From Nitrospiria bacterium (lineage in GTDB: Bacteria; Nitrospirota; Nitrospiria; DASWJH01): a stretch of 64,000 bases of DNA. A program made the position numbers and the translations under genes. The stretch covers positions 4,172 to 68,171 of the forward strand of contig DASWJH010000048.1 in assembly GCA_036397255.1 (NCBI GenBank), written 5' to 3'. Below, piece after piece: positions 3,930 through 59,550 of this stretch. Under the pieces are notes generated by a model. That model ran no database searches. It was not told where the DNA came from and saw only the letters and a list, made by a program, of their open reading frames with translations. Position 1 is the first letter of the stretch. Each line of letters begins with the position of its first letter.

Positions 3930-4568
3930 TTACAAATCATAAGGGAAAAATTCCGAAAGGTGGGGAAGCATTCTTTGAATAAAATCCCGGTGAAGTGATT
4001 TTTGTTTTTCAAACTCTTCAGGCATGAAATAAAAGGAAGAAATTTTAACTAAAGCAGCATCAGTTCTTTTATTCAATATTGCGTTTAATGCATATTTAAC
4101 TCTCCCTGATCTCTTCCCCACCACACCATAAGAATCAAGGAAAAAAGCATATGAAACCAGTGCAAAGCGATTATTTTTTTTAAAACTTGCCTGGTTAATT
4201 CTTAATGAATGTTTTCCCGAATGGACAATCTTTGTGGAGGTGTGGACCAAACCCCAATTTTTATCCGGTAAAATGTTTTGTCCCCCAAATATATTATTCC
4301 CATGTCTAAATTTACCCCAATAACCAATATATAAAGATAATATATTTTTTTTCTCGTCTTGAAAATTTCTTAAAAAGATTACACCATCAGGAATGATTAC
4401 AATATTTTCAAAGGTTTCTTCTTGACCAGTCTGGGTCCAATTTCCCAATGCTTCAGGAAAAAGTCCAAAACTTGCCCTCAACGGGGTTCCCTCTCCCAAA
4501 GGGAAAAATTCAACATAAAGGGCAGTGATGCCTAATAAAAAAATTACAATAATCCACTTTTGAATCAC
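3930..4568 (-). CDS. EpsI-family exosortase-associated protein (periplasmic, with a single N-terminal TM helix)
   Basis: It lies immediately downstream of the exosortase. It has an N-terminal TM helix (IIVIFLLGITALYV) and is about 200 aa, the size and position expected of EpsI. The similarity is judged by context and size, not by a strong motif. Confidence 0.45.
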   Translation of the reverse strand: MIQKWIIVIFLLGITALYVEFFPLGEGTPLRASFGLFPEALGNWTQTGQEETFENIVIIPDGVIFLRNFQDEKKNILSLYIGYWGKFRHGNNIFGGQNILPDKNWGLVHTSTKIVHSGKHSLRINQASFKKNNRFALVSYAFFLDSYGVVGKRSGRVKYALNAILNKRTDAALVKISSFYFMPEEFEKQKSLHRDFIQRMLPHLSEFFPYDL

Positions 4569-9900: not shown

Positions 9901-11130
9901 TTATTTTTGGTAGGTAACTGGCCTGTTTTTTTCAATATGATTCCTAATAAATGCCTCCAGTCTATCCCTTATTTCGACTTTCTCATTTATTAAGTTAATC
10001 TTCTCACCGTAATCCTCTTTCCAATTATACAGCTCAAAAATTGACTCCCCATAATTGGCTATCATTTTCCATTCCCCATTAATTGCGCAGGCATAATTTC
10101 GGCTTTGCTCGCTTATAATAAATTTCGTTTTATAATCACTTTCTCTATTGTACATAAGCGGCATTAGGCTGTTCCCATCAAAATCATAGTTTACCTGTAT
10201 ATCCAAAACATCCAATACCGTAGGAACCAAATCCATAAGGCTGACAGGATAAGAACAAATTTGGCTTTTAATTTCTAAATCCTGAGGAAACTTAATAAAC
10301 AGGGGAACATTAATCATTTCGTTACAAAATATATCCGGATGACCATAGTATCCCCTGGTACCAAATAGATCGCCATGATCTCCTGTAATAATAATCATCG
10401 ATCGACTATCATCGTTTTCGTTCAGCAACTCCCCAATTTGAGAATCCAGGTACTTCATTTTCTCTTTGTAAACCGCAAGCATTTTCTCCTTTTCACTTGG
10501 ATTTATTTTCTCAGGGGAAATAGTAGCCTTTTTCCACACACTTCCTGCCTCCATTCTATTTTTGAATTGCCATCCCGATCTGGAAATATATGGACCGTGT
10601 ATATCCATATAATGCAAGCTAACAAAATACGGTAATTTGTCTTTTTTAAAGTTTTGCCGGATCTGGAAATTTAACTCTTCTCCTGAACTATAAGGATCCC
10701 TCAGGAGGGTTTTCAGTAAAAGGAGGGCCTCTAGCAAAGGCCCATGCATATTCTTGAATAAGATGCCATCATCCCTAAATACATTAAACCCTTTTTCAAA
10801 TTTCCTCCAACTCGACGTGCATGGATTGGCAGTAAAACCATACGTGGAATATCCATTTTTTTGAAGTATTTGCGACAACATCGTCCTTTTTGGAGAAACA
10901 GATTTATACCAATCTCCATATCGACACGGGCAACATCCCGAAAGGATTGCAAGAGCTGACACCGCTGTTCGAACACCAGCCGAATAGGCTGAGGTAAAAG
11001 TAACGCACTCTTTTGAAAAAGCATCCAGGTTGGGGGTCAAATTTTCAATTCGGGCCCCCTCATTGAAACATCCAACAAAATTTCGATTCCAAGAGTCAAC
11101 AATAACCAATACGATATTATACTTCGGCAC
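9901..11130 (-). CDS. sulfatase-like protein (alkaline phosphatase superfamily) with an atypical active-site region
   Basis: It has an N-terminal IVLVIVDSWNRNF metal-ligand block and IIITGDHGD. The canonical C/S-x-P-x-R position reads VRTAV instead, and a CCPCR pentapeptide lies just downstream. Confidence 0.55.
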   Translation of the reverse strand: MPKYNIVLVIVDSWNRNFVGCFNEGARIENLTPNLDAFSKECVTFTSAYSAGVRTAVSALAILSGCCPCRYGDWYKSVSPKRTMLSQILQKNGYSTYGFTANPCTSSWRKFEKGFNVFRDDGILFKNMHGPLLEALLLLKTLLRDPYSSGEELNFQIRQNFKKDKLPYFVSLHYMDIHGPYISRSGWQFKNRMEAGSVWKKATISPEKINPSEKEKMLAVYKEKMKYLDSQIGELLNENDDSRSMIIITGDHGDLFGTRGYYGHPDIFCNEMINVPLFIKFPQDLEIKSQICSYPVSLMDLVPTVLDVLDIQVNYDFDGNSLMPLMYNRESDYKTKFIISEQSRNYACAINGEWKMIANYGESIFELYNWKEDYGEKINLINEKVEIRDRLEAFIRNHIEKNRPVTYQK

Positions 11131-16524: not shown

Positions 16525-17922
16525 CTACAGATACCCCAAACTTTCTAGATTTTTCTTAGTTAATTCATCCACTGAAGATTGTTTTTCGTGTTCTATTTTT
16601 TGATTCATCGCTTGCCATTTTAAAAGTTTTTTCTTTAGCTCTGCCGCAATAATCTTTTCCTCACCAATCTTATTGAAACGTTCATCTTTGTCGCGCCCAA
16701 TATCGTACAGCTCTTCTTTTCCACTCTCACTTTTAATAAATTTATGATCGCCTTGCCTAATCATTACCATAGGGTCTTTAAATCGCCGAACCACCTCACT
16801 TGAGTCCGGATTTCCAACCCGCTTCATGATGAAGCTTGGAATTCTCCCTTCCCATTCCGCAATAATAAACTCATGAAAAATTTCCTTGGTTCCTCCCAAG
16901 CTCACCCCTTGGACTTTCTCTGATAACTGTTGATCTAAACCCAATACGTCAATTACCGTAGGGAAAACATCCACTAACTGCACAAGGCTTGACATCCACT
17001 TTCCATTATCTGAGCGTCCAGGATATTTAATTATTAAAGGGATATGGATTATTGGCTCGTATAGGCTAGAAACATGGGAATAAAGATTGTGTTCCCCGAA
17101 GTGTTCGCCATGATCCGCGGTTAGGATAATCATGGTCTCATCATAGATTCCTTCCCGCTTCAAGAAATCTGTGAGTTCGCCTATTTTTTGGTCCAAATAG
17201 TTTATCTCTGCATCATATAGCGCTTTCAATGCTTCAATTTCATTGGAATTCAGTGTCATTTCATCTACAAAATAAATAAGGGGATTATTAGCAACCAGGC
17301 CCACCTTCTTCAGATCGATATTTTGGAGAGAAATGTCTTTCCAATATCGCGCTTTAAAGGCAGATGGGGGATCAAGGGGGTTGTGAGGTTCTATGTAATG
17401 GAGAAACATATAGAAAGGATTATCCCGACTATCCAGGAACGATCGAAAAGCCAGTTGATTGGTTCGATGTGCACCATGGTCGCTAACACCCATGATACCG
17501 GCACCCTTTCTCAATAAAAAATTGATTCCCCTTTGAACCAGTGACGTTGAGGGTTGCCCCTTCCAAATTTCTTGATAAACCTGGTGCCCCTTTTCGAGTC
17601 CGACGAGTTCTCCCACCTGGGAGTTATTAATAAAACCAAAAGTCTTATAACCACACCCCAACAGAACCTGAGCAAGGGTCGGAATGTCACGCCTCAAACG
17701 ATTTTCACCAACAGCCCCATGACTCGAGGGGTATAAACCTGTTAGCAGAGAGGCATGGGCCGGAGGAGTCCACACGGCAGTCGAATATGCTTTCTCATAA
17801 ACGACCCCTTCCCTCCCTAGCTGATCGATGTTAGGGGATGTGGGCCGCTTGTAACCGTAGCAAGTAAGATGGTCGGCTCGTAACGTATCGATAGATATCA
17901 ACAAAACATTTGGACCTTTCAC
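16525..17922 (-). CDS. sulfatase-like protein (alkaline phosphatase superfamily) with a non-canonical nucleophile motif
   Basis: It has NVLLISIDTLRADHLTCYGY (a choline-sulfatase-like start). AYSTAVWTPPAHASLLTGLYPSSHG occupies the place of the canonical AAPVCSPSRAALLTG, so there is no Cys/Ser-x-P-x-R. Later it has ILTADHGEHFGEH. Confidence 0.55.
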   Translation of the reverse strand: MKGPNVLLISIDTLRADHLTCYGYKRPTSPNIDQLGREGVVYEKAYSTAVWTPPAHASLLTGLYPSSHGAVGENRLRRDIPTLAQVLLGCGYKTFGFINNSQVGELVGLEKGHQVYQEIWKGQPSTSLVQRGINFLLRKGAGIMGVSDHGAHRTNQLAFRSFLDSRDNPFYMFLHYIEPHNPLDPPSAFKARYWKDISLQNIDLKKVGLVANNPLIYFVDEMTLNSNEIEALKALYDAEINYLDQKIGELTDFLKREGIYDETMIILTADHGEHFGEHNLYSHVSSLYEPIIHIPLIIKYPGRSDNGKWMSSLVQLVDVFPTVIDVLGLDQQLSEKVQGVSLGGTKEIFHEFIIAEWEGRIPSFIMKRVGNPDSSEVVRRFKDPMVMIRQGDHKFIKSESGKEELYDIGRDKDERFNKIGEEKIIAAELKKKLLKWQAMNQKIEHEKQSSVDELTKKNLESLGYL

Positions 17923-45590: not shown

Positions 45591-46754
45591 TTAATTTACT
45601 ACGGCAACCCCAATAATCTTTCCCTTGCTTTTTAAGGCCATTCGCCCTAAAGAGGTTTTGCCTCTTTCCACAATCAAGGGATCTTTAAATTTGAGCTTTA
45701 CTATGCAAACCTCACCAATTTCAGCCTGAGCCAAAGTCTCAAACTCACATTCGGTCCTTGAGGGGCCGCATTCCAAAACAAGGTTATTTGGAACTTCTTC
45801 AAGCAAGATCGCATGGGCAGTTGCCTCGCGCGTGACCTGTGCAACACTCTCAGGAAGGCAACAAACCTCCCCCCGGTGAACGGAGGGTAGATTCCGGTCT
45901 AACACTAAACCAATATTTTCCCCGGGCATGGCAGTTTTTTGATTTTTATCCACTCCCATGATGGAACGAATGGTCGCCTTTCCATTGGAAGGGACAAAAA
46001 CAACCTCTTGCCCCACATGAATCTCCCCACTTTCTACCTTCCCTGCAAGGATCCGTTCGCCTGCCTTATTCTCGTACACATCTTGAACCGGTAACCGCAA
46101 GGGGAGATTCAAGAATGAATTCTGAACCTCTAATCCTTCCATATGCTCAAAAAGGGTCCTCCCCGTGTACCAAGGCATCTGTGACGAACGGGCCACCACA
46201 TTATCTCCCTTATAAGCGGAAATGGGAATAAAATCCACTTTTGGGCCAAGGATTGGTGTCTTCTCCAATGCCTTGATCTTTGAAACCATCTCCTCAAAAA
46301 CCTCTTGCTGATACTCCACATGGTCCATTTTATTAACCACGACGATTAGGGAAGCAAGCCCAAGCCAATTTGCTAATCGTAAATGGTGGCCGGTCTGTTC
46401 CTCTAAACCCTCCTTAGCTGAAACAATCAAAATTCCCGCATCAGCATGAGAGGCACCACTGAGCATGTTCTTGAGGAGTTCTCTGTGCCCAGGAACGTCG
46501 ATACAGTCATAAATATTTTTTTTACCTTTGACCTGAGCGTGAATTACATCAATCGTCATCCCATCTCTTCGCTCTTCCTCAAAGCTATCCAATAAAAAAG
46601 CGTACTCAAATGGTTTCCCAACTGTCTTGCAATACTCCCTCACCTCTTCAGTGCGGTCTTCCATTACGCTTTTAGTGTCATATAGAAGACGGCCAATCAA
46701 GGTGGACTTGCCATGGTCCTTATGGCCCAACAGTGTAATGGTAAATCGTTTCAT
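45591..46754 (-). CDS. cysN: sulfate adenylyltransferase subunit 1-like GTPase (CysN/NodQ-type, EF-Tu fold, no fused APS kinase)
   Basis: G1 is GHKDHGKST, G3 is DVPGH, and G4 is NKMD. It is translationally abutted to the upstream CysD-like gene (stop and start adjacent). Confidence 0.7.
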   Translation of the reverse strand: MKRFTITLLGHKDHGKSTLIGRLLYDTKSVMEDRTEEVREYCKTVGKPFEYAFLLDSFEEERRDGMTIDVIHAQVKGKKNIYDCIDVPGHRELLKNMLSGASHADAGILIVSAKEGLEEQTGHHLRLANWLGLASLIVVVNKMDHVEYQQEVFEEMVSKIKALEKTPILGPKVDFIPISAYKGDNVVARSSQMPWYTGRTLFEHMEGLEVQNSFLNLPLRLPVQDVYENKAGERILAGKVESGEIHVGQEVVFVPSNGKATIRSIMGVDKNQKTAMPGENIGLVLDRNLPSVHRGEVCCLPESVAQVTREATAHAILLEEVPNNLVLECGPSRTECEFETLAQAEIGEVCIVKLKFKDPLIVERGKTSLGRMALKSKGKIIGVAVVN

Positions 46755-47546
46755 TTACATATACCCCAAAGCTCGAAGGCGCTGCATGACATTCTCCTGC
46801 TCCTTGTCCTGCATTCGACCCGCTCTCTCAGAAGTGGTTGTTGTTTTAAGCTCTTCAATAATTTCATCAATAGTGGAGGCATGGGAATCAATCCCCACGG
46901 TGCATTGTGTACAGCCCAGACTACGGTAGCGGTTACCATTTCGGGAAAAGTAGAGAGGATTTACAGGTATCTTCTCCTGTTTAATATAAACCCACATATC
47001 CAATTCGGTCCAATGCAGTAAAGGATGAATCCTGATATGTGAAGCGTCCTCCGTCTGAGAAATAAAATCCCAAATTTCCGGAGCCTGGTTTTTGTAATCC
47101 CACCTAAACTCCTTATCTCTTGGAGAAAAATACCTCTCTTTCCCCCGAATTCCATGTTCATCTCGCCGGATTGAAACGAAAAGACCATCAAAGTTCCGCT
47201 CCCCCATCAAACCCTTAAGCGCATCGGTTTTATTTGAGCCACAGCACCTGACGCCTGACAAGTCATCCTTGATCACACTTTTGGGTACCAGCAGATCTAG
47301 GCCCCATTCCTTTGCTAGCCTCTCCCTGAATTCATAGGTTTCTGGAAAATCGATTCCATTATCAATATGAATCAAAGGAAAAGGAACACGACCGAAAAAC
47401 GCCTTTCTCGCCAAAGCAACCAAAACGGTTGAATCCTTTCCTGTTGACCAAAGGGCTGCTAGATTCTCAAACCGCGCATGGGCTTCTCGAATCGTAAAGA
47501 TACTCTTTGCTTCCAACTCCTTTAATTCATTTACCTCACTCATCAT
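46755..47546 (-). CDS. cysD: sulfate adenylyltransferase subunit 2 (PAPS-reductase-fold ATP pyrophosphatase, CysD)
   Basis: ALWSTGKDSTVLVALA is the PP-loop. Its size and its pairing with the CysN-like GTPase support the call. SD GGAGAC lies upstream of the MM start. Confidence 0.7.
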   Translation of the reverse strand: MMSEVNELKELEAKSIFTIREAHARFENLAALWSTGKDSTVLVALARKAFFGRVPFPLIHIDNGIDFPETYEFRERLAKEWGLDLLVPKSVIKDDLSGVRCCGSNKTDALKGLMGERNFDGLFVSIRRDEHGIRGKERYFSPRDKEFRWDYKNQAPEIWDFISQTEDASHIRIHPLLHWTELDMWVYIKQEKIPVNPLYFSRNGNRYRSLGCTQCTVGIDSHASTIDEIIEELKTTTTSERAGRMQDKEQENVMQRLRALGYM

Positions 47547-47678: not shown

Positions 47679-48203
47679 TTAACTACCCACCACGTGCCCA
47701 AGATCTACTGTAACACGGGCGTGGAACGAGATCGTACGCAATAAGAGCATTGCCCTTTGGTGGTCAGGTAATTCTTGTTGAAAAACAGCTTCAAACCCTT
47801 GTAAGGGCCCTTGTTGAATACGAACTACTTGCCCTTCCACAAAAGAGGAATTTTTAATAATGACGTACCCGTCTTTACATCGGATCTTGATTGATCCAAT
47901 AATTTCTTCCTCAACTTTCACTGGAAAAGATCCAAAAGCAACAAGGCTTTTCACCCCATGGGCAAAAGCCACCATTCTGTAGTGTTGGCTCAGATTAAAC
48001 CTTGCAAAAAAATAACCCGGAAAAAGAGGACGCGTAACCGTTTTCCTGTTTCTCCGAATAATCCTTTCCTGTTGAAATCGGGGACAAAATGTCTCTATTC
48101 CAAGCCTTTGTAAATTCAATTCTGCAAAATTTTCTCGGTTGGGTTTAGTATGTACTGCATACCAATAAACTTCACTATCACCCATGCTTTTTTGATTCCC
48201 CAC
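47679..48203 (-). CDS. NusG-paralog transcription antiterminator (UpxY/RfaH-like)
   Basis: YWYAVHTKPNRENFAELNLQRLGIETFCPRF is the NGN domain, and EGQVVRIQQGPLQG is the C-terminal KOW. At 174 aa it lacks features of the full housekeeping NusG. Confidence 0.7.
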   Translation of the reverse strand: MGNQKSMGDSEVYWYAVHTKPNRENFAELNLQRLGIETFCPRFQQERIIRRNRKTVTRPLFPGYFFARFNLSQHYRMVAFAHGVKSLVAFGSFPVKVEEEIIGSIKIRCKDGYVIIKNSSFVEGQVVRIQQGPLQGFEAVFQQELPDHQRAMLLLRTISFHARVTVDLGHVVGS

Positions 48204-51222: not shown

Positions 51223-52224
51223 TCAATAGGGATACCCATAATATCTTGTGAACCCGGATTCCATTCCGTTCAAAACAATTGCCCACACTTTCTCGGCAGG
51301 AAGACCAGCGAAAGCTTTTAGGACTAAGTCTCTTGGTGTCATTCCTGCCCTAACAACAAATAGGATTCCATTCACCAGTTCCGAAAAAATATTCATGTCG
51401 GCTAATGGTAAAACCGGAGGTGAATCGATAATGATGTATTCAAATTCCATTTCGGCCTGGGAAAGAGCCTCAGCCATTTTTGGTAAACTTAAAAGTCTGG
51501 TTGAATTTTTCTCATTGCTTCCAGCCGGTAACATAAAAAGTTTTTCGGTCAAAAAGGGATAGATACATTCCTCCAATGAATTATTTCTCGCAAGTATATC
51601 CACCAAACCTTTACCACATGGGGATTTTAAATATCGATGAAGATCCGGTTTTTTTAAATCTCCTTCAATAATAAGTGTCTTTTTATTAAAATCCTTGGCC
51701 ATGGTAACTCCCAGGTTTACAGACGTAGTGGTCTTTCCTTCCCCCTTTACAGAACTCGATATTGCAATGCGCTTTTGTTTTCCTTCCCCATTCATATGTT
51801 TGAATCGGGAATATAAAACCCGATACTGTTCACTGGCCATGGACTGGGGTTCCAAAAGTGCGATCGGATGCTCATCCATTTTCCTTTTCCTCTCCCCTTT
51901 TACAATTTCCCTTCTAACATTTAGGTCTTTCCTGCTATTTGAAAGCGTTAAAGCCCGGTGATCTATTTTTAAATATTTAAAATCCTCATCTTTGACCCCG
52001 GCAAAACGGTATGGGCTAAAATGAGCTCCATTGTTTTTCTTATTCATTACCAACTTATAAGCAGTAAGAATTTTTTCAAGGTTCATTTTTTCTTCTGTTC
52101 CGAGAAAACGACCATTTTTAAGACCAATAAATTCCTTAACAGCCAAATCAAAGGCTTTTTGTATTTCTTCCCTATTTGACTCAGGGTTAATTTTCAAAAT
52201 TTTAAAACTTTCTTCTTTTTTCAT
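51223..52224 (-). CDS. BY-kinase (bacterial tyrosine autokinase) cytoplasmic ATPase subunit
   Basis: Walker A is ISSSVKGEGKTTTSVNLG. The C-terminal tyrosine cluster is RYYGYPY. It is coupled by ATGA to the upstream chain-length determinant. Confidence 0.75.
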   Translation of the reverse strand: MKKEESFKILKINPESNREEIQKAFDLAVKEFIGLKNGRFLGTEEKMNLEKILTAYKLVMNKKNNGAHFSPYRFAGVKDEDFKYLKIDHRALTLSNSRKDLNVRREIVKGERKRKMDEHPIALLEPQSMASEQYRVLYSRFKHMNGEGKQKRIAISSSVKGEGKTTTSVNLGVTMAKDFNKKTLIIEGDLKKPDLHRYLKSPCGKGLVDILARNNSLEECIYPFLTEKLFMLPAGSNEKNSTRLLSLPKMAEALSQAEMEFEYIIIDSPPVLPLADMNIFSELVNGILFVVRAGMTPRDLVLKAFAGLPAEKVWAIVLNGMESGFTRYYGYPY

Positions 52225-53735
52225 TCTTTAAATAATTTTGGGTTCAAAAATTTTTTCTGACCTTCTTTTTTTTCCTTGATAGGACGGAATTTTATTTTTT
52301 TATATTTAGAAAATTTTGGAATGGATACAACCAAAGGACCCTTCATGACACCCTCTAAATCCTCAGGTTGTCTGAAACAGGGATTCAACATCTCAATCAA
52401 TAAAGCAAGCCCGAAACCTGAGGCTGCTCCAGCAAAACTTCCAGCAAGCAGGAGCTTTCGAAGATTTGGTTTATATGGTTTTTCTGGTAAATTGGCGGGG
52501 TCAATGATGCGAAAACGCTCCCCTTGTTGCCGTTTTTCGAGATTTTCCGAAAGCCTCGCATTTATACTTTTCCCCAATAGGTTCTGATAATTCCCTTGGG
52601 ACATATCGTAATCTCTTTGGAGTTTTTTAAGTTCAACTTCTAACATTGGCGTACGAGCGACTCTTGTTTCATAGCCTCTAATCTTCTCTACCAAAAGTTT
52701 CCCGGTCACTTCCAAGTCTTTAATCTCCCTTAAGATTTTCTGGTGTTGATCAAGGAGACGTTTGTAATTTTCATTTTCCCGGAGAAAAGGGATATCACCT
52801 GTAGGGTTTGATTTTGTGGTGGATTGGGAAAGCTGAGCCTCCATTTCCCGTATTTGTTTTTTTAAAAGGATGACATCGGGATAATTTTCTTTATATACAA
52901 TCCGAAGATTTTTGAGTTTTTCCCTTAATTGTTGAAGCGGCATATTTGGTTCCTCAATAGAAGACGCTGAATTTGTAGTGAAATTGAGGGCTTCTTGTTT
53001 CAATTTCAAAATTTGATTCTCTAGATCCTGGGCTCGATCTTCCTTTGAATTTATTAAATCTCTGTTGGCTTGAAAATTAATTTGAAGCCGGTCTAAGGTT
53101 CTTAGGTTTGAGTCTATTTCACTCGGCAATCCCCCTCTATTTTTCTCTTTAAACCTTCTGATATTCTCATCAAGGCTGTCCATTTGTTTTTTGGCTTCCG
53201 CCAATTCTTTCTGAAGGAAATTGGTTGTAACCTGGGCCTGTTGTTCCCGGACTTTAAGGTTTTCTTCAATGAAGCGTGAAGCGATTCGATTGGTTACGTT
53301 CATGACTTTTTCAGGGTCTTTTCCAACAAAACTGATCGAAAATGCCTGTTTTCCTACAACATCCAATTGAATATTTTTTTGCAGCTTTTCAACAACCGAT
53401 TCCTTTCCTAACTCAGCAAACTCTTTAGGAAAAAGGTCCAATTCGTCCCGCAGTTTAATTAAATTGGTCCGGCTCATTACCTGCTGGCTAATTGTTTTCA
53501 ACCGTTCCGAAATTGGAGTAGTTACAGTTGATTTAACGTAATCCTGGGGTATTATTTGGGGTTCGACTAAAATCATTGTGGTGGACCGATACGCTTTAGG
53601 GAGCCAATAACTTAGCCCTAGGCTAACCCCCAGGGCTACAATGATTGGAAAAAAGATCCAATATCTACGTCTAAAAAAAACATCAATATATTGGAAGATC
53701 ATCTTTTGAATTTCAGGTGAAAATTGGTTATTCAT
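52221..53735 (-). CDS. polysaccharide chain-length determinant (PCP/Wzz-like, transmembrane activator of the BY-kinase)
   Basis: There is an N-terminal TM helix (YWIFFPIIVALGVSLGLSYWL), a long periplasmic coiled-coil region (KQMDSLDENIRRFKEKN...), and a C-terminal TM helix (LLAGSFAGAASGFGLALLIE). Confidence 0.7.
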   Translation of the reverse strand: MNNQFSPEIQKMIFQYIDVFFRRRYWIFFPIIVALGVSLGLSYWLPKAYRSTTMILVEPQIIPQDYVKSTVTTPISERLKTISQQVMSRTNLIKLRDELDLFPKEFAELGKESVVEKLQKNIQLDVVGKQAFSISFVGKDPEKVMNVTNRIASRFIEENLKVREQQAQVTTNFLQKELAEAKKQMDSLDENIRRFKEKNRGGLPSEIDSNLRTLDRLQINFQANRDLINSKEDRAQDLENQILKLKQEALNFTTNSASSIEEPNMPLQQLREKLKNLRIVYKENYPDVILLKKQIREMEAQLSQSTTKSNPTGDIPFLRENENYKRLLDQHQKILREIKDLEVTGKLLVEKIRGYETRVARTPMLEVELKKLQRDYDMSQGNYQNLLGKSINARLSENLEKRQQGERFRIIDPANLPEKPYKPNLRKLLLAGSFAGAASGFGLALLIEMLNPCFRQPEDLEGVMKGPLVVSIPKFSKYKKIKFRPIKEKKEGQKKFLNPKLFKE

Positions 53736-53752
53736 TCATAAGGTCCTTTATG

Positions 53753-54949
53753 TTAGAAAGACGGAAAAATCGCTAAAAGTTGCATTTGAACCCGGTTTCT
53801 ATAAAGATCTTCACCCAGATTTCCACCAGATACCTGCCGGTTATGGGTATAAGAAACATTTCCAGATAACCATTTGTTAAATAAATAGTTCAATGTTGCA
53901 TTCAATCTAAAAAATTGAATGTCAACCTCCCCCCCCTTTATGGTTTTATTCGTACCATAACTTCCCCCCATTTGACCGGTAAGGAACTGTGTAAAACTCT
54001 TTGAAAGTGATACCCTTACATTTTGATGTTGAACCAAGCGATTGACCAAACCGGTTGACCTAATATCCTGGTTATATGAAAAATTAATTTTAGTATTTCT
54101 TTCCAACAAAAAACCTTTATCGATATTGCCTGAAAAAAAAGGCCTATATTCCTCGGTCCCAGCTTCGGCCAAATGAAGAACTCCCCCCTCAACCTGAAAA
54201 CTAAAAGTGGAGGAAAAAATATGCCTCCATCCCAGAGTGGCCAAATAAGTATCGGAGCTGTCCTCCCCATCAAACGAAACATTTTGATAGCGGGCAGCAA
54301 GGGTCATTGTATCATTTCGAAATAATTGGTAGGCATAGGTAGACTTAAGCGATTGCCCAAAACGATCCACAAGAGTTGGATCGGAATATTCTGTAAGGGT
54401 ATTTGTATATTCTAAAGACGCCTGAGCGCGCCGAGAAAGTTGATATCGGTATTCTGCTCCAAAATGATTCCGAAAGGCCGTGTTTCTCCCTACCTGGGTT
54501 CCATCATCTTCACCTGTAACCACACCGGGGTCTAACTCATAATCAGGTAAATCAGGCGTTATGACAAATCTTTCGGTAAAGGTTAGTTCTCCCCTCTTGT
54601 TAAAACGGTTAAGGAGCCGATCAAGGTTTAAGTCCAACCCCCCATTCTGGTTATAACGATTCAGTTGGGAGTGGTCTGCGTAAACATCCAAACTTCCTCT
54701 ATAGGTTAAAGCCGTGCTCACAAGAGGCCACTGGTAACTGACCCTTAAAGTTGGCGATATAGATGTAATATAATCAGATTCACGGTCAGAACCGCTGGAA
54801 AATATATTGTCATCAAAGGTTTCTGTGAACGACATAGCAGGTTCCACTATCAATTCACCTTTTACAATCTCGCAAGTTCCCATAATTAAAAAACCCCAGA
54901 TAAAAAGAAATAACCCAATAAAAAAAATAAAGTTTCTCATAAAGGCCAA
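53753..54949 (-). CDS. outer-membrane beta-barrel protein (exosortase/EPS-locus-associated OMP)
   Basis: It has a signal peptide and alternating amphipathic beta-strand pattern throughout, and ends ...QLLAIFPSF, a C-terminal Phe OMP signature. Confidence 0.55.
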   Translation of the reverse strand: MAFMRNFIFFIGLFLFIWGFLIMGTCEIVKGELIVEPAMSFTETFDDNIFSSGSDRESDYITSISPTLRVSYQWPLVSTALTYRGSLDVYADHSQLNRYNQNGGLDLNLDRLLNRFNKRGELTFTERFVITPDLPDYELDPGVVTGEDDGTQVGRNTAFRNHFGAEYRYQLSRRAQASLEYTNTLTEYSDPTLVDRFGQSLKSTYAYQLFRNDTMTLAARYQNVSFDGEDSSDTYLATLGWRHIFSSTFSFQVEGGVLHLAEAGTEEYRPFFSGNIDKGFLLERNTKINFSYNQDIRSTGLVNRLVQHQNVRVSLSKSFTQFLTGQMGGSYGTNKTIKGGEVDIQFFRLNATLNYLFNKWLSGNVSYTHNRQVSGGNLGEDLYRNRVQMQLLAIFPSF

Positions 54950-54980
54950 GGCATGGATTATTGGGAAATTTCTAACAAAC

Positions 54981-56039
54981 TCATGGCACCAGAATTGTGT
55001 CTCCCGGTTTTAGAAAAATGTTTTCCATTTCACCACCTGACACAATATCATCGTATTTTACTTTGATCTTGGTTTCTGGGTACTCTTTATAACCCTTTCG
55101 TAAAATAATTATTTTATTTCGGGACGCAAATTGGGTAAAACCTCCTGCTAGAGCTAAGGCTTGTATTACTGTTACATTGCTTTTCAACTGATACTTTCCA
55201 GGATTAACTACCTCCCCCATCAAATAAACCACATAACTATTGATTTCTTGGACAATTACAGTAACCACGGGATTTTCCATATATTCTTTTAAAAGGCCGG
55301 CAATTCTTTCCCGAAGTTGATTGGGTTTTAAACCCGCTGCCGAAACATCCCCAATTAAGGGAAAAGAGATTATCCCATCGGGCCTAACCTTTACTGTTCT
55401 GGAGAGAACGTCATTTTTCCAAACCATTATTTCGAGAACATCTTCAGACCCGATTAAATAATCTTTACCGGATTCGGCTAATGCGTGTTCCCTTTGAAAA
55501 TCATTTTCAGTGGAAAGGGCAAGGGAAACTAATTTATTGCCATCATTCCCGGAAGGGAAACCCTCATCAGTAGCAGAAAACCTGGAATCAAAAATTTCTA
55601 CAATGATTTTTCCTTCTTCACCTCTCACCCGAGTCGTTGCAGAAGGGTTTAGGTTGATTTCAAACTGAACGCCCTCCTTTGGTTTTCGGGTTTCCCGTGG
55701 ATAAATATCCAACACGGCCCCACGGTTAACTACCATCGGTTTGATGTGTTTACCCAGCGTAACCCCTGGAATTTCCAGTATCAGTTGGTGAGATTCTGGA
55801 ACTTTGATGGCTCTATAAAAAAGAGGCCCCTCGCCTTGAATCACCACCTCGGTCACTTCTGGCAAATCATTGATCATAAGATTTTTTATTTGAAAAAATT
55901 CTTGGTGTTGACTGTTTTTTGGACTTGAAGTCCCCATTACACAACCGGAGAATAGGAGATTGAATAAAACACAAGCAATGATCATCTCGTAACGGTTGAA
56001 ACAGGACCACATCTCTTTCCAAAAATTTTCCTTTTTCAC
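54981..56039 (-). CDS. polysaccharide export lipoprotein (Wza-like, Poly_export plus SLBB domains)
   Basis: It has a lipoprotein signal with lipobox LLFSGC. GSEDVLEIMVWKNDVLS...VRPDGIISFPLIGDVSAAGL is the polysaccharide-export motif, and it has a C-terminal SLBB. Confidence 0.7.
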   Translation of the reverse strand: MKKENFWKEMWSCFNRYEMIIACVLFNLLFSGCVMGTSSPKNSQHQEFFQIKNLMINDLPEVTEVVIQGEGPLFYRAIKVPESHQLILEIPGVTLGKHIKPMVVNRGAVLDIYPRETRKPKEGVQFEINLNPSATTRVRGEEGKIIVEIFDSRFSATDEGFPSGNDGNKLVSLALSTENDFQREHALAESGKDYLIGSEDVLEIMVWKNDVLSRTVKVRPDGIISFPLIGDVSAAGLKPNQLRERIAGLLKEYMENPVVTVIVQEINSYVVYLMGEVVNPGKYQLKSNVTVIQALALAGGFTQFASRNKIIILRKGYKEYPETKIKVKYDDIVSGGEMENIFLKPGDTILVP

Positions 56040-56105: not shown

Positions 56106-56624
56106 TTATTCTTGGGGAAGACAAATCAAATTTCCACCCTCTGCCCGGGCTTTTTCTAACATTTCCTCTGCTTTTGAAATCAGGCTTTCAATGTCATTGG
56201 AATGGGTTGGAAAAGAGGCCCCTCCGATACTAATCGTTTGCTTCCGCTCCATTACCTTCACAATAAAAGTATAATCCTGTATCCGATCTTTAATTCTGTT
56301 TCCAATCTGACAGGTGCTTTGATAGTCTGCATGATGCAGAATTAAGAAAAACTTATTGTTTGCAATCCGGCCTATAATATCCGTTCCCCTAATCTCATCC
56401 CGAATAAGGTTTGCAAATGTTTTGAGCAAAGAATCATCCGAGAACGGAAAAGGCTCTTCCTCCTTCTTCATTTGGTCGGGCTGAATAATCAAGAGGGAAA
56501 AAAAGTAAAGGTATCGAACTGCTTTTCGAACTTCTAAATCAAGAAGGTATTCAAAAAACTCACGATCTAGCGTTTGTGTGACCCGATCCAACACGACATG
56601 CCCTCCTCTCTTTGGAATGGGCAA
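56106..56624 (-). CDS. stand-alone degenerate GGDEF-domain protein (catalytically inactive; candidate c-di-GMP/GTP sensor)
   Basis: YLYFFSLLIIQPDQMKK aligns with the l-DiDhFK region, and GRIANNKFFLIL sits where R-x-GGDEF should be. ISIGGASFPTHS...EEMLEKARAEGGN aligns with the SiGva...AD-aLY-AK--GrN C-terminus. Confidence 0.5.
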   Translation of the reverse strand: MPIPKRGGHVVLDRVTQTLDREFFEYLLDLEVRKAVRYLYFFSLLIIQPDQMKKEEEPFPFSDDSLLKTFANLIRDEIRGTDIIGRIANNKFFLILHHADYQSTCQIGNRIKDRIQDYTFIVKVMERKQTISIGGASFPTHSNDIESLISKAEEMLEKARAEGGNLICLPQE

Positions 56625-56770
56625 AGCCCTTCCATCAGCTCAAGTAAAAACAATCCCAATTTTCAGAAAAACTTCAACTAGTACCTAATACAATTTTTCG
56701 TTTTTTCATTACGGGAAGAATATCGAAAAAATTTTTACCGGGTTTCCCCATTCGAAATCTTAATTTATCC

Positions 56771-58204
56771 TTAATTTTTTTCTTCCCAATCGCACTCTTT
56801 AATTTTATATAAAAGGGCTTTATAGCTAATTCCCAAAATTTTGGCCGTTTCCTTTCGATTCCAATGGGTATCTTGTAGAACTTTTTTAATCAATTCGGAT
56901 TCGGCTTTACGGGCAGCGGTTTTTCCCGTTTTTTTCAGGGAAAAACTAGACGAATCCAGCGAAACAACGGAAGAAACAACCGGTTCGGGGAGGTTTTCCT
57001 CCATCTTTGAAGAAGAAACATTTAAATTATTCTCTTTTTCCTTGAAGTAATTTCTCACAGCAGCATCTTCATTTCCTAAAATAACAATTCGTTTAACCAT
57101 ATTTTCTAATTCCCTAACATTTCCCGGCCAATCGTAATCCAAAAAACGTTTCATATTGTGGTCAGAGATTCCTCTCATTTCACGGTTAAACTGTTGACCG
57201 TACTTTCTAACAAAGATTTCAGTTAAAGTCGGAATATCCTCTTTCCGATCTCTCAGGGGGGGAAGGTGAATACTGACCACATTTAAACGGTAATATAAAT
57301 CCTCCCTAAAGGTTCCTTGGCGAACGGCCACCTCTAAATGTTTATTCGTTGCCGCAATCACCCGCACATCCACTTTAATTTCATTACCTCCCAACCGGGA
57401 AAACTCTCCATCTTGTAAAACCTGAAGAAGTTTTGCTTGAAGAGAAAAAGGAATATCACCTATTTCATCCAAAAATATAGTACCGTGATTTGCAAATTCA
57501 AACTTTCCAGGGTTACTGCGATGAGCCCCCGTGAAAGACCCTTTCTCATGCCCAAATAGTTCGCTCTCCAATAAACCGTCTGGAATAGCTGCACACAATA
57601 CCTTCACAAAAGGGCGATCGACCCGTGTGGAACAGGTATAAAGGGTTCGGGCAACCAACTCCTTCCCAGTTCCACTTTCTCCCCCAATTAAAACCGTAAT
57701 ATCAGTTTTGGCCACCTGGTCAATTACGGTCCTAACCTCCTCCATTTTCCTGCTTGATCCAGTTAAAAGGTGGGGGTGATTATTTTTTGGTTTTACCCGT
57801 TTTTCAGTTTCCTCCTTCTTCATTCCTTCTTGGGGAAGGGAGCTACAAACTTTGCCAATCTTTAAAATAAGATCTTGATAATCCAAAGGTTTTTTTACAA
57901 CTTCAATTCCATCTCGATCGTATAAGTTCCGATTGATTGGAGGGATTTGCTGTAGGTCAGCCAAGAGAATGACAGGAATTCTTTTTCCATGGTTACTCAA
58001 TTGCTTTACCGTTTCTAAGGAATTCGAACCAAAAGGAAGATTAAATAAAATGAGATTGGGGTCAATGGAAACGGCTTCGGAAAGGGTATCTGGGCCATTT
58101 CGGGTCGAAAAAATTTTATACCCAAAGGACGTTAAAAAACTTTTAAGATAACTCTTCATTAATGGGTCATTATCAACAATTAACACCTTAAATTCGTTTC
58201 CCAT
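56771..58204 (-). CDS. sigma-54-dependent response regulator (NtrC family; PrsR-like EPS regulator) with an atypical receiver
   Basis: The receiver VLIVDNDPLM has Asn where the phospho-acceptor should be (LILFNLPF). AAA+ has VLIGGESGTGKELVAR, and GSFTGA is a GAFTGA variant. The C-terminal Fis-type HTH is ETAKILGISYKALLYKI. Confidence 0.8.
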   Translation of the reverse strand: MGNEFKVLIVDNDPLMKSYLKSFLTSFGYKIFSTRNGPDTLSEAVSIDPNLILFNLPFGSNSLETVKQLSNHGKRIPVILLADLQQIPPINRNLYDRDGIEVVKKPLDYQDLILKIGKVCSSLPQEGMKKEETEKRVKPKNNHPHLLTGSSRKMEEVRTVIDQVAKTDITVLIGGESGTGKELVARTLYTCSTRVDRPFVKVLCAAIPDGLLESELFGHEKGSFTGAHRSNPGKFEFANHGTIFLDEIGDIPFSLQAKLLQVLQDGEFSRLGGNEIKVDVRVIAATNKHLEVAVRQGTFREDLYYRLNVVSIHLPPLRDRKEDIPTLTEIFVRKYGQQFNREMRGISDHNMKRFLDYDWPGNVRELENMVKRIVILGNEDAAVRNYFKEKENNLNVSSSKMEENLPEPVVSSVVSLDSSSFSLKKTGKTAARKAESELIKKVLQDTHWNRKETAKILGISYKALLYKIKECDWEEKN

Positions 58205-58617
58205 ATGATTCCTCTTTCATTAAATGGTCTAGGAGAATAGATTAAATAATTTTTCCTCCTATATTTAATAGTTAGCTTTTAGGTGCAAGGATTGTACCAA
58301 TTAATTAAACTTCCCAATACTAATTAAATTGCAATAAAACTAATAAGTTATAACTTTTTTTCTGTTAATTTATTTTCTTGGGATGTGAAATGAAAAAAGT
58401 AAAGGAAAAAAAATTACATAAAGTGTAAATTTTATACTATTTATGTCTAAATTTTACCTATTTTAAGAAATTAATTAACCATGAACAAAAAATAAAGGAA
58501 TTAAATAACCTAAAAATCAAACCTTGTTTCCCTTTTATGAAAAACACACCCTTCTAGGCAAAATATAATAATTGGGTTATACTTTAAACCAACTTAACCC
58601 AAAAACCTTCGTAAATC
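58205..58617. promoter_or_regulatory. 413-nt AT-rich divergent intergenic region carrying promoters for the sigma-54 regulator/EPS cluster (minus) and the REC-GGDEF gene (plus)
   Basis: It is the longest non-coding region in the window and is about 25% GC. It is flanked by divergently transcribed regulatory genes. No individual motif is confidently assigned. Confidence 0.4.
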
Positions 58618-59550
58618 ATGGAAAAAACCTTATTAGTCGTTGAAGATTCCTCATCGATTAGGGAATCTATCGTAAACTCATTAAAATCATGCTCCTTTTT
58701 CTCCCTGATTCTAGAAGCCGAAAATGGGATCAACGCACTTGAAATCCTATTACGAGACGAAATTCATTTTGTCATTTCTGATGTGGTTATGCCCCAAATG
58801 GATGGCTATAAACTTCTATCCTTAATTAGGAATCATGAAAAGTACCTAGACCTACCGTTTATTCTTTTAACTAGCGAAAAGGATTCAAGATCAAAAATCA
58901 AAGGAATTTCAATGGGAGCCAGCGATTATTTGACCAAACCTTTTGATCAAAGTGAACTTTTGGCAAGGGTTAAAAATTTATTGAAAACGAAGGGGATGCA
59001 GGAAGAATTAAAGGAAAAAAACCAAGAGCTTGAAAAGTTGAATCAAAAATTAAAAGAACTATCGGTAACAGATCATCTGACCAAACTTTATAATCGACGT
59101 TATTTCAATGAAAGACTATCCATAGAACTGCAACGGGCTCAAAGGTTCCAGCTTCCCCTAGCATGTCTATTATTGGATATTGACCACTTTAAAACCATTA
59201 ATGACACCTTTGGCCACCAAAACGGGGACCAGGTTTTACAAGAAGTTGCTCACATGTTAAAATCCTTATGCCGTTCCCATGATGTTGCAGCCCGGTTTGG
59301 GGGAGAGGAATTTATTTTATTTTTGTGTCAAACCCACAAGGAAGAAGCTCTTAAATTTGCAGAAGGTTTACGATGTGACATTGAATCTTTTCCTTTTTTA
59401 GAAAGAATGGAAAACACTATTTCCATAACCGTCAGCATTGGGGTTTCCGGGTTTCCTCATCCGAAAATTCAAAACTTTCAGGATATGATTCGATGCGCTG
59501 ATGAAGCCCTCTATGCGGCAAAACGGGCGGGACGTAATAAGGTCATATGA
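58618..59550 (+). CDS. response-regulator diguanylate cyclase (REC plus GGDEF; PleD/WspR-like)
   Basis: The receiver is LLVVEDSS...FVISDVVMPQMDGY...KP. The GGDEF domain has DHLTKLYNRRYF, an RSHD I-site and RFGGEEF (intact GGEEF). Confidence 0.85.
   Translation: MEKTLLVVEDSSSIRESIVNSLKSCSFFSLILEAENGINALEILLRDEIHFVISDVVMPQMDGYKLLSLIRNHEKYLDLPFILLTSEKDSRSKIKGISMGASDYLTKPFDQSELLARVKNLLKTKGMQEELKEKNQELEKLNQKLKELSVTDHLTKLYNRRYFNERLSIELQRAQRFQLPLACLLLDIDHFKTINDTFGHQNGDQVLQEVAHMLKSLCRSHDVAARFGGEEFILFLCQTHKEEALKFAEGLRCDIESFPFLERMENTISITVSIGVSGFPHPKIQNFQDMIRCADEALYAAKRAGRNKVI

Follow-up and report, generated by a model that had tools for sequence, protein, structure and literature searches.

The stretch of DNA analysed here (hereafter the window: 64,000 nucleotides of contig DASWJH010000048.1, positions 4,172 to 68,171, in the Nitrospiria bacterium assembly GCA_036397255.1) carries an operon of exopolysaccharide (EPS, or slime) type of about 54 kb, at the head of which lies a regulatory node consisting of an NtrC-family sigma-54 activator, i.e., a bacterial enhancer-binding protein (bEBP), and a small stand-alone protein with a degenerate GGDEF domain, called B in the following. 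The activator and B occur side by side at about 60 loci in two phyla, and this pair probably ties slime production to cyclic diguanylate (c-di-GMP). More specifically, sequence comparisons led us to propose that a sigma-54 promoter, the bEBP, and B make up a conserved switch at the head of exosortase-type EPS operons in which B would serve as a trans-acting c-di-GMP sensor, a reading to which we assign a probability of roughly 45%. In the full-text literature, no account was found of an activator that has a stand-alone, degenerate GGDEF protein as its partner.

The analysis followed up a prediction made from the letters of the window (hereafter the original prediction), which described three regulatory genes flanking a 413-nucleotide (nt) divergent intergenic region and suggested that c-di-GMP and a phosphorylation-independent pseudo-receiver, rather than the PrsK/PrsR two-component pair, control EPS expression. 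The three genes and the intergenic region were found where they had been placed, and the suggested control of EPS through c-di-GMP and sigma-54 has been strengthened by the conservation of the pair, the invariant I-site, and the conserved -24/-12 promoters; the pseudo-receiver, however, turned out not to belong to the core of the system.

Conservation of the activator and B as a pair

Profile-guided scans of genome and metagenome contigs yielded 90 loci. Where at least 600 nt were available ahead of B (n=63), a sigma-54 activator was located directly upstream of it on the same strand in 59 loci, and the gap between the pair in the Thermodesulfobacteriota clade is typically 40 nt or less, or the genes overlap. 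Export genes, i.e., a Wza-like exporter or an XrtA-type chain-length determinant, follow B in 39 of the 46 loci with at least 900 nt past it, and they were confirmed by Pfam for L066, L010, L031, and L009. The pair was also observed with no adjoining EPS genes at L003/L004, L012, and L045, and L009 is the only locus where B stands beside EPS genes with no adjacent bEBP.

The export genes past B give rise to a serious alternative, in which B is a c-di-GMP receptor acting post-translationally on the machine for EPS polymerisation or export, in the manner of PelD, Alg44, or BcsA/BcsE, and is merely co-transcribed, with the activator regulated otherwise. PelD, a degenerate GGDEF I-site receptor which activates polysaccharide synthesis, provides a precedent. 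Moreover, Poly_export or Wzz genes are those found directly past B in the 39 loci, the promoter between bEBP and B in most Nitrospirota loci means that B is co-expressed with the export genes and not with the activator, and L009 retains B and export genes with no bEBP next to them. Even so, we regard this alternative as less likely, and the coupling of B to the activator is favoured over a role in export only because the linkage to the bEBP is tighter, the genes often overlapping, because the receiver-less partner activators described below would otherwise be left with no identifiable input, and because the pair persists at the loci which lack EPS genes. In addition, the AlphaFold model of B is a small, bare GGDEF domain, unlike the membrane-anchored PelD.

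Five forms of the activator N-terminus were distinguished among the complete partners: a canonical receiver (DDE, D, S, K) at L025 and L031; a pocket-degenerate receiver retaining the Asp at L005-L010, L020, and L027; a receiver with Asn in the window, L001, L002, and L003; a highly degenerate receiver at L012; and no receiver, the protein consisting of only AAA+ and helix-turn-helix (HTH) domains in 330-386 amino acids (aa), at five Nitrospirota and about 27 Thermodesulfobacteriota loci. The B proteins of the five receiver-less Nitrospirota loci scored 224-243 bits with the B-family profile, as high as the closest relatives of the window. Since the form of the receiver varies in this way, the constant unit is the activator together with B, the pseudo-receiver is not its defining part, and the receiver of the window is one stage in a series leading from a canonical receiver to none. 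About 30 partner activators (330-350 aa) consist of only AAA+ and HTH domains; they have no sensory domain and therefore need an input acting in trans. In Desulfovibrio, bEBPs without N-terminal domains have likewise been taken to point to a partner protein or to a cascade of regulators (Kazakov et al., PMC4641369).

At several Thermodesulfobacteriota loci (L066:506-4093; L014, L017, L043, L055, L073, and L080), three extra genes were observed ahead of the activator and B. The first encodes a pseudo-receiver, with Glu in the acceptor place, joined to a second dead GGDEF domain, which reads ENGNF at the signature motif and has an REED I-site, and the other two encode a single-domain receiver (REC) protein and a GAF-containing sigma-54 activator.

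The degenerate GGDEF protein

B of the window matches PF00990 over profile positions 2-160 of 161 (E = 1.4e-20). It had been described as a stand-alone GGDEF domain of 172 aa in which the signature motif is replaced by ANNKF, and while its stand-alone nature and the motif hold, a length of 162 aa is likelier: the probable start is a GTG at 56594 with the ribosome-binding site GAGGAGGG upstream of it, and this length is backed by P0121 (100% identical, 162 aa) and by the gene call in L095, an independent assembly of the same region. The motifs occur in the order RGTD, IIGRI, and ANNKF, with RxxD exactly five residues ahead of the former GG[DE]EF motif, which is the canonical I-site spacing. QPD is found in place of DxD, the first metal-binding Asp is absent, and the Asn/Asp guanine-binding stretch is missing. 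Catalysis and GTP binding by B are implausible because of ANNKF, QPD, and the loss of that stretch, and B does not have the make-up of an active diguanylate cyclase, in agreement with the non-catalytic module that had been predicted. The accompanying label of a nucleotide-binding module was too general, as B belongs to a conserved family which keeps the RxxD I-site, a putative c-di-GMP-binding site.

The AlphaFold model of B, computed on the family alignment, reached a pLDDT of 86.5 and consists of a bare GGDEF domain with no extra segment. It superposes on the GGDEF domains of DosC, 3ign, PleD, and WspR with template-modelling (TM) scores of up to 0.85-0.87 (0.85 for DosC by Foldseek), and according to this model B is a complete GGDEF fold.

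A first database search returned at least 58 clusters of B (counted at 90% identity), which are Nitrospirota or metagenomic in origin and range from 147 to 237 aa, most of them from 155 to 177 aa; the few longer ones have N-terminal extensions which resemble miscalled starts. A second search, seeded with a Thermodesulfobacteriota relative, added at least 152 clusters of about 150 aa, for which the source annotations read 'hypothetical protein', 'GGDEF domain-containing protein', 'diguanylate cyclase (GGDEF)-like protein', or 'PleD family response regulator', and many of which score below the Pfam GGDEF threshold. The family has no model of its own, and its members mostly bear 'hypothetical' or generic GGDEF and diguanylate cyclase names. 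The possibility that B is a pseudogene fragment of a larger GGDEF gene, which the original prediction had allowed for, was ruled out by these two sets of clusters, nearly all of about 150-175 aa, and by the complete fold. Every locus came from a metagenome-assembled genome or a metagenome, and no cultured host of B was found among them. Two long matches to the B profile, at L088 and L092, were considered as possible fusions and proved to be ordinary PAS/REC-GGDEF-EAL enzymes.

The motifs were compared in 89 B sequences, i.e., those of 88 loci and the window's own. The results showed that RxxD is present in 89 of 89 and GG[DE]EF in none, and that the former GGDEF position varies (GHDKF, GEDRF, GENRL, SKNRV, and others). 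The Arg of RxxD is invariant, while the adjoining positions and the entire active site drift. An invariant RxxD next to a drifting former GGDEF motif is the pattern expected under selection on the I-site alone.

It is also conceivable that B is an adaptor or anti-activator which works independently of a ligand, or that it binds another nucleotide, in which case RxxD would be structural and control would be exerted by the pseudo-receiver together with autoregulation through sigma-54. Roles unrelated to c-di-GMP are found among degenerate GGDEF domains, such as the sensing of GTP in PdeA or protein-protein contact in CsrD, and the Asp of RxxD and the Gly/Arg next to it are common in the GGDEF fold. 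Such an explanation seems to us improbable in view of the Arg that is retained in all sequences amid drifting neighbours and a drifting active site, the loss of the GTP-binding residues in B, and the presence of more GGDEF-type genes in both clades (the window and L001 have the intact cyclase, and the Thermodesulfobacteriota loci the degenerate REC-GGDEF protein with REED).

Sigma-54 promoters and the intergenic region

Sigma-54 promoters were sought with the -24/-12 model TGGCAC-N5-TTGCW, with a match at 9 or more of 11 positions and with GG and GC fixed. Of 39 non-redundant loci, 34 carry such an element where it would be expected, in comparison to 2.8 predicted from the background rate (P ~3e-25). 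It precedes the activator both in the clade of the window (the window, L001, L025, and L031) and in the Thermodesulfobacteriota loci, and falls between the activator and B in most Nitrospirota loci (11 loci). In the window, the intergenic element TGGTACAATCCTTGCA is the top minus-strand match of the whole 64 kb, with 10 of 11 positions matched and both GG and GC in register; its counterpart in L001 is placed at -85. Between the window's activator and B, no second sigma-54 promoter and no terminator was found; a TGG..GC element near 56640 was rejected as a sigma-54 promoter on account of its wrong spacing.

For the clade of the window no activator-binding motif could be established, and only weak AT-rich repeats were seen, among them two direct repeats listed in Table 1 as candidate activator sites. 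In 12 of 21 Thermodesulfobacteriota loci (L066, L043, L014, and others), a palindrome AGTGG-N10-CCACT, extended to GTGGAAA-N4-6-TTTCCAC, occurs some 120-150 nt ahead of the -24/-12 element and is probably the activator-binding site there; it is absent from the window. An inverted repeat with 15-nt arms was also observed in the 5' untranslated region between the promoter and the start of the activator, and it is partly conserved in L001.

The activator and its pseudo-receiver

The activator of the window is a protein of 477 aa with a pseudo-receiver, a flexible linker, an AAA+ domain, and HTH_8, in that order. Pfam matched it to Response_reg weakly (38 bits), to Sigma54_activat (PF00158, 229.5 bits), to AAA_lid_14 (PF25601), and to HTH_8 (PF02954). 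The output half is intact and shows what is expected of a bEBP, i.e., Walker A (GESGTGKE), ESELFGH, a GAFTGA-type loop (GSFTGA), Walker B (IFLDEI), and a C-terminal Fis-type HTH.

The acceptor Asp of receivers ends beta-3 (D57 in CheY, D54 in NtrC). In a phmmer alignment to NtrC1 of Aquifex (4l4u), the segment 'nlilfNl' of the window's receiver stands opposite 'nvvllDl', which puts Asn55 at the acceptor position as had been predicted. In a MAFFT alignment of the receiver with 120 homologues, this column holds Asp in 113 of 121 sequences and Asn in four, namely the window, P0001 (85% identity), P0002 (74%), and P0007 (51%). The codon of Asn55 is AAT at 58040-58042, L095 is nucleotide-identical, and the relatives L001 (AAC) and L002 and L003 (both AAT) have Asn as well; the identical assembly and the use of both codons by the relatives rule out a sequencing error.

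The acidic pocket, which the original prediction took to be kept, is degenerate: it reads D11-N12-D13 in comparison to (E/D)-D-D, so that one acid is lost, the Thr/Ser position is Ala82, and Lys105 is the sole canonical residue left. The domain thus lacks the acceptor Asp, the full acidic pocket, and the Thr/Ser of a canonical phospho-accepting receiver. The ratio of nonsynonymous to synonymous substitution (dN/dS) in comparison to L001 was 0.05 for the pseudo-receiver and 0.03 for the AAA+ domain, which indicates that the pseudo-receiver is kept by selection and is not decaying, and the sequence comparisons indicate that the absence of the acceptor Asp is a maintained state in this lineage. 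The linker between the receiver and the AAA+ domain is poorly conserved, with 16-56% aa identity and dN/dS of 0.75 in comparison to L001 and 0.37 in comparison to L002.

Orthology of the activator to PrsR was rejected, since it scored 323.3 bits with TIGR02915 in comparison to a cut-off of 502.6 and matched over residues 100-386 only, i.e., the AAA+ part. No histidine kinase was detected among the window's open reading frames (ORFs) that were scanned, in line with the claim that no PrsK-type kinase is adjacent; a cluster with CheA, described below, lies past purQLF beyond the end of the window. Within the window, the node differs from the PrsK/PrsR pair as had been suggested, although the pseudo-receiver given as its distinguishing mark varies or is absent in the relatives.

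A further explanation is that the activator itself binds c-di-GMP, as FleQ, VpsR, BerB, and EpsI/Nla24 do, and that B is an accessory, e.g., a c-di-GMP buffer, or is unrelated. Several EPS regulators of bEBP type are known to bind c-di-GMP (PMC10723142, PMC6158489, PMC5552954), the receiver of FleQ is phosphorylation-incompetent like that of the window's activator, and the FleQ AAA+ domain was among the activator's best sequence matches in the PDB. The c-di-GMP contacts of FleQ, located in its AAA+ domain and linker, are R144, R185, E330, and R334 (PMC10723142), and a phmmer alignment to FleQ showed that they are mostly not conserved: R144 is replaced by His, E330 by Ile, and R334 by Lys, and only R185 is kept, which is general to bEBPs. 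A FleQ-like site in the activator was rejected on these grounds, and direct sensing would also leave the near-obligate partner gene with its I-site unexplained; we consider it the least probable of the explanations weighed here.

The EPS cluster and neighbouring genes

Nearly all genes of the window are on the minus strand and form a single long cluster that starts near 58.2 kb and ends near 2 kb (Table 1). Besides the genes listed, the cluster includes a priming glycosyltransferase (TIGR03013, 506.7 bits in comparison to a cut-off of 393), a deacetylase (TIGR03006, 396.8 bits in comparison to 276), many glycosyltransferases, a flippase, sulfate-activation and sulfatase-like genes, and an RfaH-like antiterminator; the TIGR03007 score in the window was 265, slightly under the cut-off of 279. 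The EPS locus is of exosortase type, and the exosortase itself passes only the generic model, as its scores were under the subtype cut-offs for the XrtA-specific TIGR03109 (159 in comparison to 208) and for XrtW (179 in comparison to 425). The EpsI-family protein was observed to be encoded by a gene of its own and not as a C-terminal domain fused to the exosortase. A crude regular expression found no PEP-CTERM-like C-termini in the whole window.

Two side observations concern the cluster's own genes. The RfaH/UpxY-like NusG paralogue embedded in the operon may act in antitermination of its roughly 54 kb, and at L050 the small GGDEF gene is likewise followed, a few genes on, by a NusG-like gene. 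Sulfate adenylyltransferase genes like CysD/CysN and two sulfatase-family genes were also noted, and a sulfated polysaccharide is suggested because these genes lie inside the cluster.

Table 1. Coordinates of the features of the window.
Feature	Position	Strand	Basis or remark
REC-GGEEF diguanylate cyclase	58618-59550	+	divergent from activator
Divergent intergenic region, 413 nt, AT-rich	58205-58617		between activator and REC-GGEEF gene
Candidate activator sites, direct repeats TAAAATTTA[G/C]AC	58423-58434, 58445-58456		12 nt, 22 bp apart
Sigma-54 -24/-12 promoter-like element TGGTACAATCCTTGCA	58284-58299	-	about 80 nt ahead of activator ATG
Inverted repeat TAGGAGGAAAAATTA..TAATCTATTCTCCTA	58230-58261	-	15-nt arms
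NtrC-family sigma-54 activator (bEBP)	56771-58204	-	Pfam and NCBIfam
Pseudo-receiver domain, residues 2-120	57845-58201	-	alignments
AAA+ sigma-54 interaction domain, residues 146-385	57050-57769	-	PF00158
B, stand-alone degenerate GGDEF protein, 162 aa from GTG	56106-56594	-	ORF reaches 56624
QPD replacing DxD in B	56475-56483	-
I-site RGTD in B	56379-56390	-
ANNKF replacing GG[DE]EF in B	56349-56363	-
First structural EPS genes	51223-56039	-	directly past small GGDEF gene
Wza-like exporter	54981-56039	-	profile match
TIGR03016-like outer-membrane barrel	53753-54949	-	profile match
XrtA-type chain-length determinant	52221-53735	-	profile match
Tyrosine autokinase	51223-52224	-	profile match
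RfaH/UpxY-like NusG paralogue	47679-48203	-	TIGR01955 112 bits, under cut-off 144.5
CysD/CysN-like sulfate adenylyltransferase and two sulfatase-family genes	45591-47546, 16525-17922, 9901-11130	-
Exosortase, 294 aa	4599-5483	-	TIGR02602 179.9 bits (cut-off 105.6); far cluster end
EpsI-family protein	3930-4568	-	TIGR02914 62.5 bits (cut-off 42.8); far cluster end

The third regulatory gene, which is transcribed divergently from the activator, was correctly predicted to be an intact REC-GGEEF cyclase with an RxxD motif, as its receiver is canonical (E-D, D55, T, K) and its GGDEF domain retains DIDHFK, GGEEF, and RSHD at the I-site. It is a plausible local source of c-di-GMP. The same placement was seen only in L001, the closest relative with that flank, and at other Nitrospirota loci a TPR protein is found there.

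Behind the cyclase gene lie purF, purL, and purQ. At L012 (4391-10231), the activator-B pair was observed to be convergent with purF-purL, with no EPS genes alongside, so that this neighbourhood recurs in distant Nitrospirota. A Che-like cluster was found past purQLF outside the right end of the window (L095:1-9886), with genes for CheA, a MerR-family protein, two CheW proteins, a 400-aa REC protein, a HEAT-repeat protein, CheR, CheB, a GAF protein, and a single REC domain; L001 likewise carries the CheB, GAF, and REC genes. Its CheA is not a kinase of PrsK/NtrB type, and together with the REC-GGEEF cyclase the cluster bears a likeness to the Wsp-type pathway from Che proteins to a cyclase.

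Comparison with known systems

In its way of working, the module is most like FleQ/FleN and PspF/PspA, while B is most like the I-site receptors PelD and PopA; the module belongs to none of these families. FleQ/FleN of Pseudomonas aeruginosa shares with it a sigma-54 activator with a phosphorylation-incompetent receiver, c-di-GMP-responsive control of EPS, and a small partner acting in trans (PMC10723142). The key differences are that FleQ itself binds c-di-GMP, for which the window's activator keeps R185 only, and that FleN, unlike B, is an ATPase of MinD/ParA type with no GGDEF domain. EPS promoters controlled by FleQ are not regarded as classical sigma-54 promoters.

The resemblance to PspF-PspA, and also to HrpRS-HrpV and NifA-NifL, lies in the fact that most activators of the module are sensor-less proteins of AAA+ and HTH domains (about 335 aa), and that in most Nitrospirota loci the sigma-54 operon opens with B, the candidate regulator, as it does with pspA in the case of PspF. 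PspA, HrpV, and NifL have no homology to B, and the presumed signal of B is c-di-GMP in place of membrane stress or redox; the window also differs from the PspF system in that its activator has a pseudo-receiver and its promoter is upstream of the activator.

PelD, PopA, SgmT, and CdgA are c-di-GMP receptors with a catalytically dead GGDEF domain and RxxD at the canonical spacing. B resembles the PelD/PopA class in having a dead GGDEF domain with RxxD five residues ahead of the former motif, and it differs in being a bare domain of about 160 aa, whereas PelD (transmembrane and GAF), PopA (REC-REC), and SgmT (kinase) are multi-domain proteins. None of the four has been described as the partner of a sigma-54 activator, which is the role proposed for B.

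PrsK/PrsR belongs to the PEP-CTERM/exosortase A systems (Haft 2006, PMC1569441). The likeness here is an NtrC-family sigma-54 activator at an exosortase-type EPS locus, with TIGR03013 and TIGR03006 in the window; the node is unlike it in the TIGR02915 score below cut-off, the lack of an acceptor Asp, and the lack of PrsK among the scanned ORFs, and the PrsK/PrsR system has no GGDEF partner. Finally, in the DgcM-MlrA pair of E. coli, a so-called trigger protein with a GGDEF domain acts through direct contact on a transcription factor belonging to its local c-di-GMP module (PMC3715855), which provides a precedent; unlike B, DgcM is an active multi-domain cyclase working on a MerR-type factor and a sigma-S promoter, and not a stand-alone protein paired with a bEBP.

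Proposed mechanism and significance

In the mechanism we propose, c-di-GMP would be produced, e.g., by the adjacent REC-GGEEF cyclase, and would be bound by B at its I-site, whereupon the bound B would alter its contact with the AAA+ core of the activator and, in the clade of the window, might also touch the non-phosphorylatable receiver. This contact would turn the activator's ATPase, its oligomerisation, or its engagement of sigma-54 on or off, and the output would be transcription of the activator, B, and the EPS operon from the -24/-12 promoter (58284-58299); since the operon of the window contains both the activator and B, the loop would be autoregulatory. B would thereby take the role of PspA, HrpV, NifL, or FleN with c-di-GMP as the signal, and would replace phosphorylation by a PrsK-type kinase. 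The binding of c-di-GMP by B, its contact with the activator, and the sign of that contact are points which we infer. By analogy with other systems, where this is the usual direction, high c-di-GMP should lead to more EPS.

Several observations weigh against this mechanism. The Asp of RxxD is widespread in GGDEF domains, and the invariant Arg is the sole residue of the motif that is I-site-specific; no fusion of B with a bEBP, i.e., no Rosetta-stone protein, was found among the matches to the B profile; the linkage of B to export genes (39/46) is nearly as strong as that to the bEBP (59/63); and the apparently canonical receivers at L025 and L031 imply that B is not a mere substitute for phosphorylation.

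A broader claim, to which we give slightly less credence than to the switch itself and which we put forward tentatively, is that the dead GGDEF proteins of about 160 aa are an undescribed class of effectors: stand-alone I-site sensors which would act as partner-switch regulators of bEBPs, either as anti-activators or as co-activators, supplying the input that the receiver has lost or never had, and which would form the main transcriptional switch at EPS loci of exosortase type in Nitrospirota and Thermodesulfobacteriota in place of PrsK/PrsR. Control of sigma-54 activators by c-di-GMP is known only through direct binding, as in FleQ, VpsR, BerB, and EpsI/Nla24, and what is proposed here is a separable solution with two proteins. 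If true, c-di-GMP signalling would gain a new class of effectors, the route of the signal would be explained for many sensor-less sigma-54 activators beside EPS loci, and the activator, B, and the -24/-12 promoter would provide a simple transplantable switch which can be tested in E. coli. Both phyla which carry the pair are abundant in sediments and groundwater.

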